DNA of 60,548 bases, filler included, from Asterionella formosa (GCA_002256025.1; 11 parts of 11 records of this genome joined end to end with filler, not necessarily neighbours in it); one strand, 5' to 3'. Shown: positions 45,010 through 60,548, numbered from the whole stretch's first letter. Notes: generated by a model from the letters alone, not told the origin. Program-made: numbers and translations.

Positions 45010-46356
45010 ATGGCGACTGAAGGACCAGCCAACAGAATACTCAACTGAGGAGGAGCATTCCTTTTGCGACCATATTCGATATTGGATAGGCGGCCCCATT
45101 CAAGTGCACATGCTTCGAAGTGTGCAGATTGCCATTATATTTGCTGCTGGTTGTGAACTTCAACACAGGTATGCATCTAGGGAAGAGAAGAAATTTCGAG
45201 ATACGGCTGAAGCGTATTTTTGAATTCTGGATGAAGACCTCGAGGATGATCTGTGTGATACTGCCATATAAACTCAACTGCGATATGCATGGGGGTCCAA
45301 GGATAAGTCGAGCATGACTGGCGATACCTTATGGAGAAAGTGGCAGGAGATTAGAAACAAACTTCGCAACAGTATCATTTCTAGTTCAAACATCGCCCAG
45401 GATTCTTTGCACAAACTTCCAAGTGGACAAGGTTTGAAGGATGCATATTTCAAATTTGTCTGCAATATTTACAAGCAAAGTTTCCAAAAGAAGAATCCGA
45501 TGTGTCAAATCATGATTGATGGAGTTGATCTACCTGGTCAATCAACCAGCAGATTCGAAATCATGGTTGTTCCAAGCCCACCCAATCATTGGGAATACAG
45601 GGATCCAACTTTGTGCTATTTGCTTACTTTAAAGATTTTTCGGAAGAATATGCAATTGGTTCCAGATTTGAAAGACAGTGATGTTGTAAATATAAGTCGA
45701 CGAGAGATGCTGCTGGCAGATCGCGAAGAGAAGAGGAATAAGGAGCATGGAAGGAGCAACAAACGAAAGCATCATCATAATGAATATTCATCACCAAGCA
45801 AACAGAAAACCCCAACCATGATGGCAGAAAGCCCCAACCAGCCATGATGGTGGATATGTTGATGCTCAATTTTCAAGCAGCACAAACTCGAAAGGGAGAA
45901 ACTGATGAGATTGTTGCTCATCTTGATCTATATGAAAGATTCAAGCACATACTCCCTGAAGACAGATATCATGCAGGTGTTTTGCATTGTTTCGATAATC
46001 TACCTTCCCTACAAACTTATGATGTTGAGAGTTCAAGTGTTTTGACTGACAAAAGTATTGTCAGTGCAACAAGTGTCTTTGGAAATGAACTCACTCCAAC
46101 AAATACTGCCCCAATTCCCTCTTTTGTTCGTAATGATGAGCAATGTAAAGATCAAGGCCCAGGACTTGTTGGAGTCATTTGCACTGACTGCCAAGTCATG
46201 AACAGTGAACACCTTTGCATTGATTGCAACAAATTTGTATGCTCCATTTGCTGTGATGGTTTTCGAAATCTACAGAACATTTGGTGTTGTGGTGCTTGCT
46301 TTTCAATGCACAGCTCTGATGTTCAGGAACTAATTAGGCAACATAAATACTCATGA
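45010..46356 (+). pseudogene. Harbinger partner ORF (Myb/SANT-like helix plus C-terminal Cys-rich zinc finger)
   Basis: LWRKWQEIRNKLR. C-terminal CTDC..EHLCIDCNKFVCSICC..WCCGAC. Stops and frameshifts. Convergent with the transposase. Confidence 0.6.
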
Positions 46357-46396: not shown

Positions 46397-47746
46397 TTAA
46401 GCTATCTTGCTAACTTGCTTCTTGTTACATCTTTTACGAAATTCGTCATAATGATCAACAAGTAGTTGAACTCTATTCCACCATTGACTTTGTTTACCCC
46501 CAGCCACTGTTTCATTCAAGAAGTTGCGGTGTGAAGTAACATGCAATTCCATGCAGTCACCTCGCACAGTATGCGCAATATGCTGTGTGTCAGAACTTTC
46601 ACAGTCAAGGTAACCATCGCTTTCTAATAGAATGTTATGGAGCATACAGCATGATGTGAACGCATTTTCGATATGCTCAGGTCGAGACAAGTTGTTCCAG
46701 TTCTTAAGAAATAACCATCGACTTTTCAATATACCAAAAGTTCATTCAATATCTTTTCGAACTGACTCCACCATCATACCCCATGACCTTTCTTTTCCAT
46801 GTTCATTGCCGTGTTTAATTGGACAAATCAACACTGGCCATCGTAGGTACCCTCCATCACAAATGAAATAGTGGCCTTTACAAGTAATAGAAGACTCGAC
46901 AGTGAGCACATTCCACTCTTGCCTGCCAAGAAACGAATTTCTATCGTGTAGATTGGAAACAGCAGCATCAAACTTGACTATGTGTTTGTCATTTCTTGTT
47001 CCTGGGTGTAGGTAGCTGATTGATAAAATCTTTCTTCTGTGATCAGAAACCACCTCAAAAACAACTGAAGGATACCCCTTGGAACCTTTAAATATATTCT
47101 TCTGGTAGGCAGGACATTGATTCCATCCAATGTGCACACAATCGACTGAGCCTATACAACCTGGAAGCCCAATGGAACTGTAATCATTTAGAATTCGATG
47201 CAGTTGGTCATCATCTTCCTCTTCCTCTCTCAATATGTATACATATTCATCCTTCTTTTCTGAAAACTTTGAAGTCCAGTGAATGAAAAAATTTCGGTGT
47301 AACTCTTTAGAAATGTCAGTTTGAATATACACATACAAATGGGAAGCACCGGTTGCCACTAGAGTGTAGAGAACACCCAGGAGGAGCAACTCAAGGTCCT
47401 TGCACAGAAGATTGGTGCAATCTTTCCAGTGCGGATCATACCAACCATTAGATATTGTCATATCATACAGTTTTAAGAATATGTTGAATGGAAGACGAAA
47501 ATTTTTGCGAAAGAGTCTTGCTTCCCATGTGTTCATGTCCAATTGTAAGATGCGCTTTTCGTTTGTTAAGAACTTCTTCCACCAACATGAATCTTCCCTT
47601 GACACCAGAGGTCGTTGCTTTCTTTTTCGCTGAGCAGATGTTGTTGGATGGCAATTGCTGTTGGACGGCGATTGCTGATTCCCTCTTTCAGATTGAGCTT
47701 CCAAATGGAACTGAGAAACCAGCTCATTTCGCAATGCAGCTGGCAA
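46397..47746 (-). pseudogene. PIF/Harbinger DDE transposase with one in-frame TGA
   Basis: GLPGCIGSVDCVH, PGTRNDK, ICDGGY, ESVRKDIE*TFGILKSRW, CCMLHNILL. Confidence 0.92.
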
Positions 47747-47940
47747 GGCTGCTGGTAGTTGCCATGAAAACCGTTGTTGCTTCCATGCGTCTGCAAATAA
47801 AAACTATCATATTTCCATGATGCATCATAGGATTGTGATCATCTGATCATAATATTTCGTTATATCATCTAATAATTTTGATAAATGCCTATGTAATTTA
47901 AATAGTAACCCTTTTGACTACATATATTTAATTATTATAT

Positions 47941-48805: not shown

Positions 48806-50024
48806 GGTGTCTGTGTCATCCTCATCAATAGAGAGACAAGTTCTTTCGTTGGAAAAATTGGTACCCGTGGTATCGTCATTCGCTCGTTGGAACCACTGTC
48901 CGTTGCCTCAAACCTGATTACCGGTAGCGTGTGGGTATGTGCACTGTCGACTTTTGTACATTACAGGCGGAGTGACTTCGCTACTAAATTGCGTGATATA
49001 ATAATATACCCTGTAGCACGATGCAGAATACAGTTGCTTCCCAATCATCTCATCATGATTGAGAAGATGATACTGTGATATCATGATAAGGTTACATCGA
49101 TACATACATCACCAAAGTATGATACGTAATAATGAATAAAGTACATCACATAAGAATGATACATTGATCATAGAACTGTGATGATTTTAATATATGTTTA
49201 TCATATAATTTTGATCAAAATATGATCATGTAAAAATAGTACAGTGACAATAAAGTATGATAAAATATGTACGCAAGTGTTACCAAGACATCATAGAATA
49301 TAAATCAAGCAATCATAAAGTATGTTAATTAATATATATGTTTGTCGTTTAATGTATACAGTTAAAGTCAACAGTTAATATGATAGTATTATACAGTGGA
49401 TAGGATCTAAGTATACGGATGCGTTGATATGTACATCACTATAATATGATTTGTGATATGGATTGATGCATATCACATACCGGTATCCACAACAACCAGC
49501 CATCACGTTCATTGTCGTGTCGTCTTTCCTTGTTTTAGCTGTANNNNNNNNNNNNNNNNNNNNNNNNNNNNNNNNNNNNNNNNNNNNTTAATTAATTAAN
49601 NNNNNNNNNNNNNNNNNNNNNNNNNNNNNNNNNNNNNNNNNNNACTTGAACTGGTACATTATCCTACCAAGAAATTCTAATACAGGAATCAAATAGAATC
49701 AATAAACGCGTATGAGAATGAGTCCTTTCTCCCTCAACGCTATTGGTTGGTCCCCTTAAGTCCTCCTGAGTCTATGAGGAGTCTGATCCGTGAGGGATAC
49801 AGGACTCATGTGGATTATCCACTGCTCTATTTTCTTGCTTTTTTCACTCATGTGAGCAAGAGTCTCGAGGCTTGAGGAAGATTTTACATTGGTCGCATCA
49901 ATGTACATGACCCAAATGCTGATGATAGGCAGTACAAAAGAAAAGTTAGGATCACCCAAATTCCCCTTGACACCTTTGCCACCTCTAAAATCCCTTTGGA
50001 GAGCAATGAGGCAGATTATGACTT

Positions 50025-53000
50025 TTGGCCAAATCTTTTGGTTATGTTTGGAATTCTGTTGTTACCAACCAAGTTTTATACACAAGTCAGCTCCAGAAGA
50101 AGTTTCATGGCAACTTTGTCATTATCACTGAAGAGAGGGAGAATTTGGAGAAGAAGTTCAAGCCCATAGCTATGGCTGTTGTGAAGCAAAAAGAGTTTCC
50201 AACTCCTATTGCTTGTATTCACTATCTGGTGACAAGTAATCAGTATTCAACCCATGATTTGCACAAGTATAAAGATCGTGACATGGGTCAATTGCTGATC
50301 CAAGCTGCTACTTGTCTTCGTATTGATGAGGAGGCCTGGAAATGTGCATAGTACCAAAGATGTCCTTCCCAACATCGACCAGTTTTTGTACAGGTGCTGG
50401 GCAATGCGGTTGAGTGGTATAAATCCTTGGGATTTGTACACTGCAATTCTATTCCTTGGATGGACAGGATCAATTATCCTCTTGAAAACCTTCTTCATGA
50501 TGAGAGGAACAAGAACAATGGCGATGTTGATTCATACAATTATGGACCTGATATGCCAGAACCAGCAAATTTCGAGACCTTTACTATCGTGCGTTTGCGA
50601 ACAAATATAGCTGAGAGTCTTCTTTCAGCCACTCATTATGATCTTCTTGATCATCAATTGGAAGAGCAAGCCTATGTGTACTCGATGTTTCTTCCAAAAG
50701 GGGGTTTCATCTACAAGCAACCAAAAGGGTTGTTTGTTTACTATATGTGCTGCATTCATATTCATTTATTCATTCACACATTTCTTTTTTTGCATTCATC
50801 GCCTGACAGAGGTGATGAATGTGAAGGCAGCTATCAGGTCAGAGTGTGCCCGCTTGGAAGCTCCTTCTTATGCGCTCAGAAAGCGTGCGAAGAGAGGCAC
50901 TATGATACAGAAGGCTGCTTTTATAGTTACAGCAGGATCAACACAGGACCAATCCCAAGTGTTGCAGAAGAGTGTTCCAAAGAAAGCTGCAAAGACAAGG
51001 ATGAAGGCTCCTCCAAGAACTGTTGCTGCGAAAGCTGTTGCACTCAAGCCTTCTGCCAAGGCTACTCCCAAGCATGATGCTACCAAAGCCGTCACATCCA
51101 AGGCAGGTGCTTACAAGGCTGCAAAGTCAACAGCCAGGAGCCGAGATGTTGCATCAATGCCTGTAACTAATCTTTACAAAGAATCTGAATCGGACTGCAA
51201 ACCAGCCGCAATTCCCAGCAAAAAAGTATCGAAACCAGACTCTAAACCAGCTGCCATAAACAGGAAAAAGTATCCAAACCGGATTCCAAATCAGCTGCCA
51301 CCTCCAGCAAAATGGTCTCTAAACCGGAGTCCCAACAAGTTGCTGTGCCAATAATCAAGAAACAATCGAAGGCTACTACCTGTCCGCCTTCTAGGTCTAT
51401 TTCCAAGAAATCACGAATTTCTTCCAAGGACAATGATGTGACTAGTCTGACAGATGATGATAGTAGTGATTCAAAGGCAACTGCCTCAAAGAATGACCTC
51501 CTCCATTGTGTCAATCCTGAACTACCTTCTTTTGTCAATTTCGACAAAAGTAACCAGAATGTGATCAAGCTGGAACTCATCCTGTCCCACCATGGGATAA
51601 GGTCGAAACAATCTGACCTAGCAGGAACTCTTCATTCACGCCGAGCAATCACCACCCAAAGGCTCAGCTCTGAAGGCAGTTTCAAGGGTGTCACTAACAC
51701 AGCAAATATTTCAAGATTGCTCTATCAGGCTGATGCAGCCTACCACCAATTTCGTCAGGAGTGCTTGCAGTATGCGGAACGAGTGTTGTCCCCATTGTCA
51801 AATGAAGATTAGACGAAAAATAATAGCAAGTCGCCTCTCACTGGGAACAAGGGTGTGGAAGAGAGTGCAAAGTGGAAGCACAGTTTTCAAGACCCTACTT
51901 TTGGTGTTTCCAACAGTTTTGACTCCAAGAGAATTGTTGATGTTCAGATCCTACCTTAACCACCTTTGACCAACATTAACAATGAGGGGCGTAAAAACAT
52001 CGAGCAAGAAACCTTGATTTCTTCCAAGGAAAAGAACATTGTAAAGGCCAAAGAAGCTGTGGTCCCAACTCCACCAGCTTTGCTTAACAATATTCCTAGT
52101 CCAGTCAAAAATCCTGTCCACTTGAGATTTGACCGGAGCACCAAGAATTATGATTCAAATACTCATGATTCAGTTCTTGAATCAGCAGCTCAATCAGAGA
52201 AAAATGCGCGTAAGGAAAACAATGGCAATACTACTGTGGTTTTTGTTCATTGACCACCTCCAGTATTAGACCCTGCCCTCAAACCTGTGCCCTTAACAAA
52301 GCACACCACCAAGGCTAATCCACAAGGCAAAGACGAAGAAGATATTTCCATCGCCTCAGAGGATGTCTCAGATGCTGGTCCTTCTTTGGAATTTCTCAAG
52401 TCTGTTGAAAAATCGAATATGAAGTTGCTTGGGGTCAACAGCAAGGATCATAAGCAGGTCAAGAAGGGTCCACATCTTACCCTCCAGCAAGATAGGAACC
52501 CAGATGATACTTTCGGTGAAATCTGGTCTATCATCAAGCTCGCACAGCATTCTATCTCCCTTCAGCAGGATCATTTCCAACCTGGTCTGAAACCTGTGCC
52601 TTCAACCAAGCATATCACCAGAGTGATTCCGCAAGGCAAAGACGACGAAGATAGTTCCATTGTCTCAGAGGATGTTCTTTCTTTGGAATTTCTTAAGTCT
52701 TTTGAGAAATCAAGTGTGAAGGAGGTGCCTGCGGTCGACAAGAAGGATAATGAGGTCATGAAGGGTAGACTTCTTATTCTCCAGAAGGATCATGTCAAAC
52801 CGGTACCCAAACCTGTGCCTCCAACAAAGCACACCAACAAGCTGAATTCACAAAGCCAAAACAAAGATAGTTCCTATGTCTCCGAGGATGGTCCTTCTTT
52901 GGAATTTCTCAAACCTGTTGAAAAATCTGTCAAAAAAATCCAACCTACTTTCCCACCTTTCTTTGCAAAGAATGAAGTTAATGTTGCTAAAAAAGAAAAA

Positions 53001-53270
53001 GGTAATAAGATTCCCAAAAAAGGCCTTCAAAAATATTCTATTCTCTCTGAGAATGTTTCCATCCCAGGAAAAGTTCTCATCCATGTCCCTGCCAATGGCG
53101 AGAATCTTTTACGTTCTCCATCTACAACCCCATCCTCCTCTGAAACCTCGTCTTCTGCTGTGTCCTCAACTAGTTGTGAAACCTCTACTGGTGGTGAAAA
53201 ATCGGATTCCAAGTTAGATGAGGAGGACAAGTCCAAAGTGATTGATTCTGACTATGAATCTGCATTGTGA
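50025..53270 (+). pseudogene. Decayed multi-domain gene: GNAT acetyltransferase-like domain, Lys/Ala-rich region and three internal repeats
   Basis: ACIHYLVTS..YKDRDMGQLLIQAA..*..VFVQVLGNAVEWYKSLGF in one frame. KKAAK/KATPK tract. Three KPVPxTKH..SEDxxSLEFLK repeats. Confidence 0.6.
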
Positions 53271-53406
53271 GTAAATGAGTGAATGTTTAGCATCTCCTAC
53301 TACCTTACTAATGAATCAGGAGATTAATGATTTCTATAAAAATTGATAATTATATGTTACCTTACTTCCCTTGTTTGTTGGTTTTGTAGTAATATTAATC
53401 GTTTTC
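53173..53406 (+). repeat. Direct duplication of ORF 3' end and UTR; second copy at 54209-54436
   Basis: gttgtgaaacctctactggtggtgaaaaatcggattccaag...aatattaat is near-identical in both copies. Confidence 0.95.
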
Positions 53407-54511
53407 AATAATGGTAGACAAACAGTATTTGTAAGTTACAAAGAGCAGTGTTGGAGCCCATTTATTGATCGATACTTTGCTTCTCATTCAATCTTCGACT
53501 GACACATTCTTCTCCAAAAATATGCATCATTTACTTCCTCAATTTGTGGTAAGTGAAGCAAGATAGAAGCGAAATGAATGTTGTTGTGTAAGCAAAACAT
53601 GAACAGCTAACAATGAATTTTTTCTCTTTGTTAGTATGGCTGATTGGAACAACGAAACGGATTCAATAGTAATAGGAAAATGCGTGAATGCAAACTCAGA
53701 ACAACACTCAGGAGTAAATGGAACAAAGCAAGCAGGGGAACAACGGCAAGGCAACCAGTTTAACAACCTTCAGAATTGGATTGGGGGGAAGGTGGAAGTG
53801 AAAGCGGCACCAACAATCATTGCGATGAGAGCATTGTAGAACATTCTGTAGCAACTCAAGATATAGAAACATAGAACCATTCTTAGCTAAATATAGTTCT
53901 AAATTTCGATCAATTTTATCCTATTTTAGACAGTGATATCGATGAGAATTACGATCATGCTAAGATAGATGTATGACAAAAATATACACATCATATGACC
54001 ATGTTTAATTAATTATATGATGCAATGGTATTATAGCTATGATAGTCTCATCATACTTCAAGCTCGGTAAAAGTTTACTGTATGATCATAATTATATGAT
54101 ACATTGATCATATATTTGATCGAAAAACTATCATATATGTGAAAATCCTGTGCCACTTAGCGTACGATACCCTTAATCATATTTTCATGATTTTTTTATT
54201 TACAGACGGTTGTGAAACCTCTACTGGTGGTGAAAAATCGGATTCCAAGTTAGATGAGGAGGACCAGTCCAAAGTGATTGATTCTGACTATGAATCTGCA
54301 TTGTGAGTAAATGAGTGAATGTTTAGCATCTCCTACTACCTTACTAGTCAATCAAGGAGAATAATGATTTCAATAAAAATTGATAATTCTATGTTACTTC
54401 CCCTGTTTCTTGGTTTTGTACTAATATTAATTGTTTCCACATCTTTATCTACCAATTTTTTCTAAACATTTCTTTCATCAGTTGCTTTATGCAATCGTAA
54501 AATCCAGCAAA

Positions 54512-55046
54512 TCAAAAGTGGAATAGGGATGCCCAGGCAGACTGCGGCTTGATTTTAATCACCTTACCTGGAGTGGCTCCTAAATTAGGAGCAGCAACAG
54601 CAGGAGAATGAATGAAATCCACGGGAACAAACAAAAGTCCTTTGTTTACATATCGATCCAATGTGAGATCAGCCCCTAACAGCAACCTTGAGTAGTTGTG
54701 CAAAGGTTCTGAGGCATATTTACAAGAGTGAATAATTGCAAAGACACCGGGGCTATGATTTCTCAAGGATGATGGTAATCTTGGATCAGTGAAATTGATC
54801 AAAGACGGACCCAATCCCAATCCAATAAAACCGTAGATCTGGCCAAGCACAATTGTCTCAACTTCTGTTTCTCCATCAAACCAGCAAGCAAACTCTGCCC
54901 AATCATACCAGGAATGACCCCCACGGTAGCTTGGATGGGCATGAAATATTACGTTGTCACTACGAGTGTGGTCGCACATCACTTCAATTTCCATTGTTGA
55001 CAAAATGAAAGGAAGGAGTTGGGCGCCTAGAACTCGCACCAGATCT
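54512..55046 (-). mobile_element. C-terminal part of a Plavaka-like (CACTA-related) transposase
   Basis: IFHAHPSYRGGHSWYDWA...LGQIYGFI...FVPVDFIHSPAVAAPN. Truncated by contig end. Confidence 0.72.
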
Positions 55047-55302
55047 NNNNNNNNNNNNNNNNNNNNNNNNNNNNNNNNNNNNNNNNNNNNTTAATTAATT
55101 AANNNNNNNNNNNNNNNNNNNNNNNNNNNNNNNNNNNNNNNNNNNNTTCCCTAATGAAGACACAAGGGATTCTCGTAATGAGGACGCTCAGCAACAGCGC
55201 CGATGACCCTCAGTCCAGTTGGGTATGTTGATGTGTCAGATCGCTCGGGTGTGGCATTTTTGATAGCAAAATAACATCAAGCATTGTGGCAGTGAGAACA
55301 AG

Positions 55303-55941
55303 ATGATTGGAGATTTCATTGGTGATGAGTCTTCGCATAAGATCATTAAGCAGGTGCTTGAAGATACCAATAATGACTACGGCAGCGATGTCGAGATTGG
55401 TGGTGCTACTGTACAACTGAAAGATCCCAATGGTACAGTTGTCATGCCAACCATGACTGACTGCAATGGTAACTTTACGTTGAATGCTTCTCCAGGCATG
55501 TACCGGTACACAATTGTCAAACAGAAACCTCCTGGATTCCTCAATGTTGGCAACAGCACAATTTCTGTAAATACAAGTTCTGCAAATGTTTTGAACATTT
55601 TTTTCGATGACCAGCACCCCATCAGCGCTCCAAGTGTGAGTGGCTGCCTCTACAGGTACTTTTTGCTTGGATCAATTTCCAGAAGTGTCAAGGAAGATAC
55701 CGACAACAATGATAGTGAAGACACTAACTTGGTGGGTGTGACTGTTGCTCTACAGGGTCCAAGTGGTAACAGCCCTATTCTACATGCTACTGTTACTAAC
55801 TTTAATGGTGACTTTGTGTTTGTGAATTTGCCCAATGGCAATTATTTTGTTAAGAAGATCATCATCCCAGCATTAGCACCACTGCATCTTCCTTGTGACC
55901 CAACATGGAGCACTTCAATGAATTCATCACCTTCATTTTAA
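55303..55941 (+). pseudogene. SdrD B-like / Cna-B repeat protein fragment
   Basis: Two repeats of (V)xEDTxNxxxxD..I/LxGxTVxL..P.G...T.TxxNGxF.F....GxY. Confidence 0.7.
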
Positions 55942-57735: not shown

Positions 57736-60548
57736 TCCTCCCCATTGCCACGCTCAAGAGGCTGTAACATCGTTCCACTCTGAACTGGTTCGGACCATCT
57801 TGTATGAATCTGTTCCTTCACGTTCTTGGTCATAATGTCCGCAAAATTATCTTCCGACCTTATAAAAATGACTTCCAATTCTTCATCCTCAATCATGACC
57901 TTTACATGATGATACTTAATATCAATATGTTTTATCCTGGTTCCGATTTGCTAATTCTTCGCGATCAAAAGAGCTCTTGTATTGTCTTCTCGTAGGATAC
58001 TTGGTAACATGACCTTACCACCAGTAACCTCATTCAGTAGCATTGCTATGAACTTGATCTCTTGTCCACACTGGGACATCGCCACATACTCGGCTTCTGT
58101 GCTGGACAGTGTAACCGTTTGTTGTCCCCTCGACTGCCAACTGATAAGTGCCCTGCCAATAGTAACAAGATAGCCAGTCGTGCTCTTCCTGTTAACCTTA
58201 TTAGCAGCCCAGTCACTGTCCACGTAGGCAATGACTCTTAACTCTTTTGGCTTACGCAACTTGAGAACTCTATCCTCCATATTGGATAGGTAACCAATGA
58301 CTCTTGCCACTGCATGCCATTGTTCTTCACCTGGGCAGCTTAAATGATCCGATAGTTCCCGAACCGCATTCTCACAGTCCGGCGAATCCTTCTTTGTAGA
58401 CCATAGTAACTTGCCCACAATTTTTCGATATTCTCCTTCCATAATGACTTCACCGTCATTCTTGTTCAATGTCTTTCCTGGTACGCCCGGCGTTGCGTAG
58501 GACTTAATTTTCATACCGGTCAACTTGTAGTAGTTGCATACGAAATTTCTGCATCTGCACCTCCCAGTATTCACCATACTTGTCCTCTTTCCAAGCATAT
58601 TCCACTCCTAGGTGTATCTGTAGAATACCCTGCTTGGTAATATTGAAATCTTCCTTGATAACATTTTTCATATAGTCCACTGCACTTGGAGTCCCACATA
58701 CAATACCGTCATCCATGTAATTAACAAGTAGACCATCAATTTATCCATCCTTTTTCGGTGCATAAATAACATAGGGTCGATCTTGCTCTTTGTCATACCT
58801 GGTTTATTGGTGACACATTTCGCAAACATCCTGGACCAGCATCATGGAGCTTGTACTATCTCGTACATAGCCTTCACAAGCTTGCAAACATGTGTATTGG
58901 AATCGACTCCGATCAAACCTTGAGGAGGGGGCTCAATATAAATGTCCTCATCGACGTCAGCATTTAGAAATGCTGCTTCCACATCAATAGCCTCCGCTCG
59001 CCAACCGTTGTACATCGTCACTGCGATTGTCGCATCGCTTGCAACAGGAGCAAATGTCTCAGTAAAATCGACACCTGGGATTTGCTCATATCCCTTCACG
59101 ACCAATCTTGCCTTGTTGTAAATGGTCTTCCCGGTTAACACATCATCTTCTTTAATTCGAAACACCCATCTCGTTTTTAGTGTTCGCTTCTTAACAGTAT
59201 CACGTTTGACAACTTTCCACACTCCTCTCGACTGGAAGTTTTCATAATCTTTGTTGATCGCCTTGATCCAATCTTTCTTGTCTGGTCTTGCCATTGCTTC
59301 ATCGTAGCTTGCTGGTAATCCTGGATCAGAAGCCAGACTTGCGTTGTACACAAAATTCACCTGTGTATTCTTCGTAATTTCCTTCATGTTATCCTCCTCG
59401 ATAACACCGGCCGTGCATCTCAGTATCTCCTGAAATTTTCATAATTTTCCTACTCGTAGGATTGAACAATGAGTCCAATCTTCGCATTTCACGTGCCAAC
59501 TTCGCTTGCTTTGACTGAGCACTTTCCGCACGTTTAGCCTTCACAATTGGGGTATTGGTACTACCTGTAACCTCGTATTTTGTAGTACCATCTATCTTAG
59601 TTGATTGTTCAGTGTTCCTCCCCAATTCTTGCTTGTCATCATCTTCATCTTCATTATCGGACACTTCTCGAGGTTCGACCTCGTCATAAAAATCGTCATG
59701 TAACTCTGCATTATCTTCTCGTACTGATATCTCCGTATCCTGTTGGTTGGTGACTGGTTTGAACATTTTTTCTAGTCCATCCGTTGGTACGTTTGTTCCA
59801 TGCCACTCACTCCACTTTATGTCACGTGTATTGACCACAGTATTTGTCTCGTGATTATGCATGCGATACGTATCTTGAGAGTGGTCATCTGAGTATCCCA
59901 AAAAGACACACTTGATGGAACGTGCATCTAATTTCTTGACACCTTCTCTTATAGTAACCCAACCAACACGTCCAAATTGCCTGTAGAGCTTGTAGGGCCG
60001 CCTTGTATTCGTTTCTCCATAGAACGCATCATCAGGACTCTTCTTAGTCACTGAATTCACTGTACTGTTCGTCAATCTTGTCGCAGTATGTACAGCTTCT
60101 GCCCACAATGGCCCCTGATATTCATCTGTAAACTTTGCACTTAGCATCATAGCGAGTGCTCTCTCACGCACTGTAACAAAACCACGTTCCACAACGCCGT
60201 TGTGCTGCGGAGTATGAGGTGCCGTAAATTCCATCTTGACACCTTGGTTTTCACATACTTTCTTTAGTTGCTTGGAGTTCTCACCTGCGTCATCACATCG
60301 GACAAATTTAGTCTTATGTCCTGCACCTGCAAGTTTTGTGAGTAACGCTCCAATGACAGTTCCGATGTCACTTTTCTTCTTGATAAAATAACTCCAGCGT
60401 TTCCTTGTATAATCGTCCACAGCCATCACCCAATACTGATTTCCCACAGCGGATTTTGCGTAGGGTCCGCTAATATCAATAAACAGTCTTTCTCCTGGTG
60501 TCGTAGCCTTCTCTTGCGTCATCTTGGGTATTGCGCGTGCTTTCTCCT
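57330..60548 (-). mobile_element. Ty1/Copia LTR retrotransposon (diatom CoDi-like), degenerate, 5' part beyond window
   Basis: Order IN-RT-RH. FIDISGP, RCDDAGEN, PQHNGVVER; KARLVVKGYEQIPGVDF, DVEAAFLNA, YMDD; YVDSDWA, SSTEAEYVA. PPT ATGGGGAGGA. Confidence 0.95.

Follow-up and report, generated by a model that had tools for sequence, protein, structure and literature searches.

Accessory genes have been described in Plavaka transposons. Giant elements of this type in red algae carry the accessory genes PAG1-3 (bioRxiv 10.1101/2025.02.11.637652), and PlavakaB and other fungal DNA transposons carry TET/JBP genes (PMC12730594). These two reports also cite HarbingerS and MuDR elements, both with SET methyltransferases, and VANDAL/VANC as transposon-encoded chromatin regulators. 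Here we describe positions 50,025 to 55,046 of a 60,548-nucleotide window, the whole stretch of DNA analysed, in which 11 records of the Asterionella formosa assembly GCA_002256025.1 are joined with filler. The stretch holds a decayed copy of a Plavaka-type terminal inverted repeat (TIR) transposon with a gene for a GNAT-like protein. With near certainty, this gene belongs as a fixed component to a Plavaka transposon of three genes, and purifying selection acted on its N-terminal 320 amino acids during the element's multiplication; after insertion, copies decayed neutrally.

Anatomy of the element and of the window copy

The layout of the element was built from 42 genome stretches plus L186, a 12.9-kb metagenome contig that spans the array, the three genes and the right end. 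The left end (CATCTAAGACGCC) is followed by a ~190-bp tandem array. Next come a divergent orphan gene, split into three open pieces, and the GNAT-like gene, then a convergent transposase frame of 955 codons and ~2.9 kb devoid of any long frame, before the right end (as the reverse complement, CATCTACAACGCC). By summing, the element measures ~13.7 kb, no single record holding both ends together with the gene. The left end is linked to the GNAT-like gene in four contigs (C12547, C13386, C12388 and C4154); L186 and C12935 connect the gene with the right end. The terminal sequences, CATCT..AGATG, lie in a 13-bp imperfect inverted repeat (11 of 13 positions matching), and exact end patterns occurred 165 (left) and 109 (right) times genome-wide, compared with 0 for the reversed controls. 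Plavaka (CMCT) elements make target duplications of 2-3 bp; here a 2-bp duplication was seen in three of the five two-ended copies (ta, tt and tg; the misses were ta/tt and aa/ga). Each of the five is a deletion derivative that lacks the GNAT exon.

The first-pass annotation had proposed a Plavaka-like transposon carrying this gene, the gene being flanked by multicopy DNA. The mapping of the ends and L186 place the gene inside common ends, and its co-occurrence with the Plavaka transposase there, searched across the genome, was found: transposase sequence was also present, in a single orientation, in 8 of the 13 stretches chosen by the GNAT-like gene, the remaining 5 being truncated or running into a contig end. 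The gene is itself a repeat, since a DNA search with 50025-50800 (60 candidates found) gave matches at 86-100% identity in all 40 that were scored.

The whole 955-amino-acid transposase frame of L186 matched PF18759 with 51.1 bits (cut-off, 26.3; E=1.5e-13) and contains FIDKTH (282), GDAEG (390), CREC (412), KFHQQMH (645) and PMEKNL (669). With the acidic triad placed by motif reading, a C(2)C and an H(3)H motif fall after the second D and before the E. PF18759, D..D..E with C(2)C plus H(3-4)H, and CA..TG terminal repeats are marks of Plavaka (CMCT) elements, the ends being one base off the CATCA..TGATG of PlavakaB. The transposase end in the window, taken alone, had no Pfam match, and the Plavaka assignment comes from the other copies. 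Silicon transporters scored above the Pfam cut-off in this genome, one of them on a contig bearing a copy of the element, which supports a diatom host.

In the other copies, exon 1 of the GNAT-like gene has 412 codons and is joined in frame, across an 82-nt GT..AG stretch, to an exon 2 of 826 codons; of 34 copies aligned, most have a GTATG donor and a CTGACAG acceptor there. L185, a metagenome contig, gives a predicted protein of 1,239 amino acids without a break; in L188 exon 2 is open (826 amino acids) with an early break in exon 1, and exon 2 of L186 contains a 4-bp insertion. Among the copies in the assembly, exon 1 was open in none of the 9 that span it and the core in 4 of 18. In a public protein cluster of 90 members, exon 1 of the representative is open; the contigs behind it may be a collapsed consensus of many copies.

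The studied stretch lies on a 5.4-kb contig bounded by two gaps, and the fragment aligns to L186:3246-6967 (94% identity) and L186:6732-7568 (93% identity). The window copy is cut at 49702, ~74 codons downstream of the gene start in other copies, and is frameshifted near 50011-50026 and 51270. The TAG at 50349-50351, previously read through, is the product of a 3-bp insertion private to this copy, the others being in frame there, and motif A reads YKDRDMG instead of YKERGMG (D in place of G). The copy is dead, in agreement with its earlier description as decayed: to the 5' cut, frameshifts and TAG are added a lost intron donor, later stops and a foreign repeat. All the motifs quoted earlier are where they had been placed: FVIITE (50115), KPIAMAVVKQ (50160), ACIHYLVTS (50211), YKDRDMGQLLIQAA (50268), VFVQVLGNAVEWYKSLGF (50382-50435) and KSVPKKAAK (50968). 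The intron and/or frameshift suspected near 50729-50809 corresponds to the predicted intron. Three internal repeats of the exon 2 tail lie at 52272-52927, and the gene stops at 53268-53270. The foreign repeat, not found in L186, had 828 candidates in the search, with the 40 scored at 89-100% identity. It is an end piece of another, very abundant repeat, and the same end was seen beside or inside other copies of the Plavaka element.

Coordinates of the features in the window (positions counted from its first nucleotide)
Feature	Position	Strand	Remarks
Plavaka-type TIR transposon, internal fragment	49702..55046	+	both ends outside contig
GNAT-like gene, exon 1 remnant, codons ~75-412	49702..50727	+	5'-truncated
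GNAT-like domain, aa ~149-320 of intact allele	49930..50447	+	Pfam, ESM Atlas, host-GNAT profile, selection
Motif A	50268-50297	+	
Motif B	50400-50435	+	
Predicted 82-nt intron	50728..50809	+	GT donor mutated in window copy
Basic tract rich in Lys, Ala and Ser (exon 2, first ~200 aa)	50810..51400	+	composition; no Pfam match
Remaining exon 2, low-complexity tail	51401..53270	+	several stops in window copy
Segment with second copy at 54209-54440	53173..53407	not assigned	~235-bp duplication
801-bp piece of unrelated, very abundant repeat	53408..54208	not assigned	between duplicated segments
Plavaka transposase, last 177 codons	54512..55046	-	cut by contig end
PIF/Harbinger-type element, transposase	46397-47803	-	Plant_tran, E=9e-18
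PIF/Harbinger-type element, convergent second frame	45272-46356	+	
Decayed copia-type retrotransposon	57951-60546	-	pieces of integrase, reverse transcriptase and RNase H
Frame with SdrD-B / carboxypeptidase-regulatory-like repeats	55267-55941	+	E=3e-13

The divergent orphan gene (L186:580-2542, minus strand) encodes ~600 amino acids, spread over three frames, and contains Trp-rich motifs as well as a coiled-coil stretch. It had no Pfam or PHROGs match and is a candidate end-binding helper. GNAT toxins are known from bacterial mobile DNA, and a divergent gene pair would also suit a GNAT toxin whose antidote is encoded by the divergent gene, the two keeping the element in the cell line. We consider this highly improbable: dozens of broken copies persist, as do many derivatives without both genes, and a family match was not found.

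Four stretches, L159 (C7262), L161 (C13229), L163 (C3856) and L167 (C2229), are non-autonomous derivatives of 5-7.5 kb that kept the ends and contain several kilobases of the ~190-bp tandem repeats instead of genes, that is, a transposon-borne satellite. Small insertions across the parts of the element, noncoding DNA included, are mostly 3-bp or 4-bp duplications; in exon 1, 32 of the 56 measure 3 bp. They may be footprints of excision or reflect a mutational habit of the whole genome.

Selection on the genes

Single-base codon changes were sorted into two classes: private, which postdate insertion, and shared, which were passed on through active elements. Once records with an identity of 99% or more had been dropped, exon 1 was left with 26 of 33 records, exon 2 with 36 of 42 and the transposase with 31 of 38. 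With all changes counted, the ratio of nonsynonymous to synonymous change (dN/dS) in exon 1 was 1.09 for private changes and 0.30 for those shared in at least three copies (19 synonymous, 18 nonsynonymous; p=3e-4), and the transposase gave 1.05 and 0.34, respectively. Shifted frames were mostly null (one reached p=0.047), and none gave a comparable signal.

When CpG changes were excluded, dN/dS in the GNAT domain was 1.06 for private changes and 0.23 for those shared in at least two copies (15 synonymous, 11 nonsynonymous; p=2e-4). Shared changes gave 0.36 in the N-terminal domain (p=0.015) and 0.51 in the transposase (p=0.002; private, 1.05). For its part, the first 200 amino acids of the tail gave 0.68 (p=0.14), or 0.38 at a minimum of three copies (p=0.024), while the rest of the tail (1.1) and the C-terminal part of exon 1 (1.07) were close to neutral, with no amino-acid-level selection in the tail remainder. 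The result held with an identity filter of 97.5%. Selection on the GNAT-like domain is at least as strong as that on the transposase. Thus, the purifying selection seen in shared variants marks the gene as one that functions for the element rather than passive cargo, and its extent over the first 320 amino acids indicates that these residues served the element.

C>T changes at CpG sites occurred in the element copies at 3.5-4.1 times the non-CpG rate, an excess that points to methylation of the copies by the host.

The GNAT-like domain and its proposed role

Open copies of the core matched Pfam Acetyltransf_7 at E values of 0.006-0.024, below the cut-off. Among five open or near-open cores, L009 and L016 matched, whereas L005, P0007 and P0008 did not; neither did the read-through translation of the window copy, and a genome-wide search with PF13508 returned no copies of the element family among its rows. 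In the ESM Atlas the domain scored 0.95, and the top ten named matches all belong to the GNAT clan, but the shared features numbered only 143-149, against the 170 that true members of a family typically have. A profile of the host's own GNAT domains (34, from 35 genome matches minus one duplicate) aligned across the whole core of the intact allele with 15.0 bits (window copy, 10.3). This value was reached by none of 1,000 residue shuffles (best, 7.1), 1,000 block shuffles (best, 14.0) or 152 real control pieces (best, 1.9), while true host GNATs, each left out of the profile in turn, scored 13.5-88 bits, the lowest two being 13.5 and 17.4.

Motif A of the open copies, K-E-R-G-M-G, follows the GNAT pattern, R/Q-x-x-G-x-G/A and then a helix, with Lys in the first place; G265 is kept in 24 of 25 copies and G267 in 22 of 25, the window copy having D265. 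Motif B, a strand followed by N/A..aromatic-x-x-x-G-F, is present in the correct order after motif A. Amino acids 149-320 would therefore very probably form a GNAT acyl-CoA transferase domain, as judged from these comparisons. That the accessory gene of this Plavaka family is real and selected is established; that it encodes a GNAT is probable.

An orphan alpha/beta domain resembling a GNAT by chance motif likeness would account for the subthreshold Pfam scores, for block shuffles reaching 14.0 against 15.0 bits, and for the second of two structure models, in which none of 48 Foldseek rows was a GNAT and T-fold noise appeared, in VIA. It is nevertheless quite improbable, as Pfam, the ESM features and the whole-core host profile agree, scores down to 13.5 and 17.4 occur among true host GNATs left out of the profile, and 11 of the 47 weak Foldseek rows of the first model were GNAT-type acetyltransferases.

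The tail between amino acids 401 and 600 contains 14-17% Lys and 16-20% Ala, with a net charge of +19 and +12 per 100 amino acids. Its earlier description as histone-H1-like concerns composition only: exon 2 had no linker-histone match in Pfam at E<=2, and we rejected an H1 identity, no winged-helix globular domain being matched.

In the role that we propose, the GNAT-like protein would act in the nucleus as a protein-lysine acetyltransferase. Its basic Lys/Ala tract would tether it to DNA or nucleosomes, the product of the divergent gene perhaps binding the ~190-bp subterminal array alongside, and chromatin over the element would be acetylated, keeping the transposase expressed or the ends open against host methylation. 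This whole chain, from nuclear enzyme through tethering to acetylation against silencing, is put forward tentatively, as somewhat short of probable. In its favour are the linkage to the transposase, the selection, the GNAT-like core, the intact allele of L185, the 90-member cluster and the CpG excess as a mark of host pressure. The accessory genes of other Plavaka elements, predicted to modify chromatin or DNA (PMC12730594; bioRxiv 10.1101/2025.02.11.637652), offer a precedent, and the sister family described below has a different enzyme-like frame behind its transposase.

Several observations weigh against it. The best Pfam score was 17.3 of the 27 bits needed, all matches being below cut-off. 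The fold prediction called for by the first-pass annotation yielded two AlphaFold models with predicted local distance difference test (pLDDT) values of 35 and 43, which were unusable and had no significant structural match. The domain had no match in NCBIfam, PHROGs or PDB sequences, and no relatives outside the element family were found in searches that included viral contigs, so that the catalytic residues are unreadable from conservation. In a low-identity alignment, Cys243 falls on the catalytic Glu of the host locus L217, which we take from its motifs to be Gcn5-like. No spliced transcript was seen, and the exon 2 pieces had no bromodomain match in Pfam. One of the three frames of a noncoding control stretch gave a dN/dS of 0.59 (p=0.014); this frame lies between the transposase start and the right end (L186:9908-12000) and may reflect chance or a small unrecognised gene. 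Finally, selection shows that the gene was of use to the element, not which use.

The first-pass assignment to GNAT/GCN5-type acetyltransferases thus holds for the GNAT-like core, on the Pfam, ESM and host-profile evidence, while Gcn5/PCAF identity was rejected on the Cys at the catalytic Glu column and the missing bromodomain. Similarly, its diatom DNA transposon is sound, and the chromatin acetylase inside it stays conditional, given that Cys, the unconfirmed fold and the lack of a spliced transcript.

A GNAT fold devoid of transferase activity, serving as an acyl-CoA-binding or scaffold helper, TnpA-like, at the ends, has a small chance of being correct. CMCT elements commonly need a helper protein, and here motif A begins with Lys instead of Arg/Gln, is preceded by an 8-residue insert, and a clear general base was not seen; but motifs A and B are kept, nearly invariant among copies, and the second orphan gene is available as a helper. 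It is also rather improbable that the enzyme acylates nucleic acid (a base in the element DNA, or RNA) and so blocks host methylation or its readers, a possibility for which phage Mu Mom offers a model of DNA base modification. Its motif B resembles that of ordinary protein GNATs, such as those of the host set, and it had neither a PHROGs match nor a relative in viral contigs, although the tail is basic, the best ESM neighbours are viral GNAT clusters, and other Plavaka accessory genes, as far as they are described, are predicted DNA modifiers (TET/JBP, adenine methylase and 2-oxoglutarate [2OG] oxygenase).

A sister family in the same genome, with 62% transposase identity, had no similarity to the GNAT-like gene in five short stretches behind its transposase. 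It carries there a 461-codon frame (L191:1039-2421, plus strand) with HxD..H..R motifs, which by motif reading would be 2OG-Fe(II) oxygenase-like and, unlike the gene studied here, is on the same strand as its transposase. A short frame at L192:267-539 (plus strand), likewise behind the sister-family transposase, looks KOW-like by motif reading; neither frame had a Pfam match. That the sister family transposes with an unrelated frame at this position, in the stretches examined, speaks against acetylation of the element's own protein (transposase or divergent-gene product) or of a host repair or cohesion protein, which would tune transpososome assembly or gap repair instead of chromatin; so does the long basic tail, which fits nucleic-acid tethering. 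Selection parallel to that on the transposase and the absence of the Gcn5 catalytic Glu would suit such a role, and acting on its own partner would explain why each family keeps its gene, but we regard it as unlikely. Returning to acetylation of the element's chromatin, a broader proposition would be that a eukaryotic cut-and-paste transposon encodes its own GNAT-family lysine acetyltransferase, with no outside relatives, and marks its own copies as active, sister Plavaka families filling the position with unrelated modifiers, as an exchangeable anti-silencing slot. We hold this to be conceivable but doubtful.

Comparison with known systems

Among the host enzymes, the short loop before motif B is shared with both L217 and L228, the latter presumably Elp3-like by its motifs, and the insert before motif A with L228. 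Unlike Gcn5/PCAF and Elp3, the element protein shows no catalytic Glu, bromodomain or radical-SAM domain. No donor gene was found in the host, the best phmmer E value among its 34 GNATs being 0.005.

The literature searched, mostly outside subscription journals and Repbase Reports, revealed no GNAT gene carried by a eukaryotic DNA transposon. The word "acetyl" is absent from the main texts of bioRxiv 10.1101/2025.02.11.637652 and PMC12730594, and "GNAT" and "diatom" from that of the latter. As described in PMC5339849, Arabidopsis HDP1/HDP2 likewise tie transposon proteins to histone acetylation and anti-silencing; they are, however, Harbinger proteins that were domesticated and belong to an acetyltransferase complex of the host, whose enzyme is not carried on a mobile element. 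HarbingerS, MuDR and VANC belong to other superfamilies, and are described as methyl writers or nonenzymatic binders, not acyltransferases. The Plavaka accessory genes (TET/JBP, SET/methylase and 2OG oxygenase) are thus closer precedents than VANC and TnpA, to which the first-pass annotation had turned.

PlavakaB, as described, shares with the present element a PF18759 transposase with C(2)C plus H(3-4)H, CA..TG ends and an enzyme-like cargo that may counter silencing, and its 2-bp duplication has a counterpart in three of the five two-ended copies here; it differs in its ends (CATCA..TGATG versus CATCT..AGATG) and in its cargo, a dioxygenase instead of a GNAT-like protein. The red-algal giants, in the published description, are also large elements with several accessory genes, tandem arrays and mostly decayed copies, the accessory genes being proposed chromatin or DNA modifiers exchanged between elements. 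They measure 17-19 kb, compared with ~13.7 kb here in a diatom host, and their PAG1-3 cargo, compared by description, differs (adenine methylase plus SET, ParB plus 2OG oxygenase, and one unknown gene).

To these systems the present analysis adds the end-to-end anatomy of the element and the selection test. The case is tractable, with an unbroken natural allele (L185), a catalytic piece of <200 amino acids and, for comparison, sister families with other cargo, all in a host in which the copies show the CpG signature of methylation. The counter-silencing proteins of transposons described to date remove or write methyl marks, as do TET/JBP, 2OG oxygenases, SET and adenine methylase, or are binders, as is VANC; an acetyltransferase, if true, would add a new chemistry to them.

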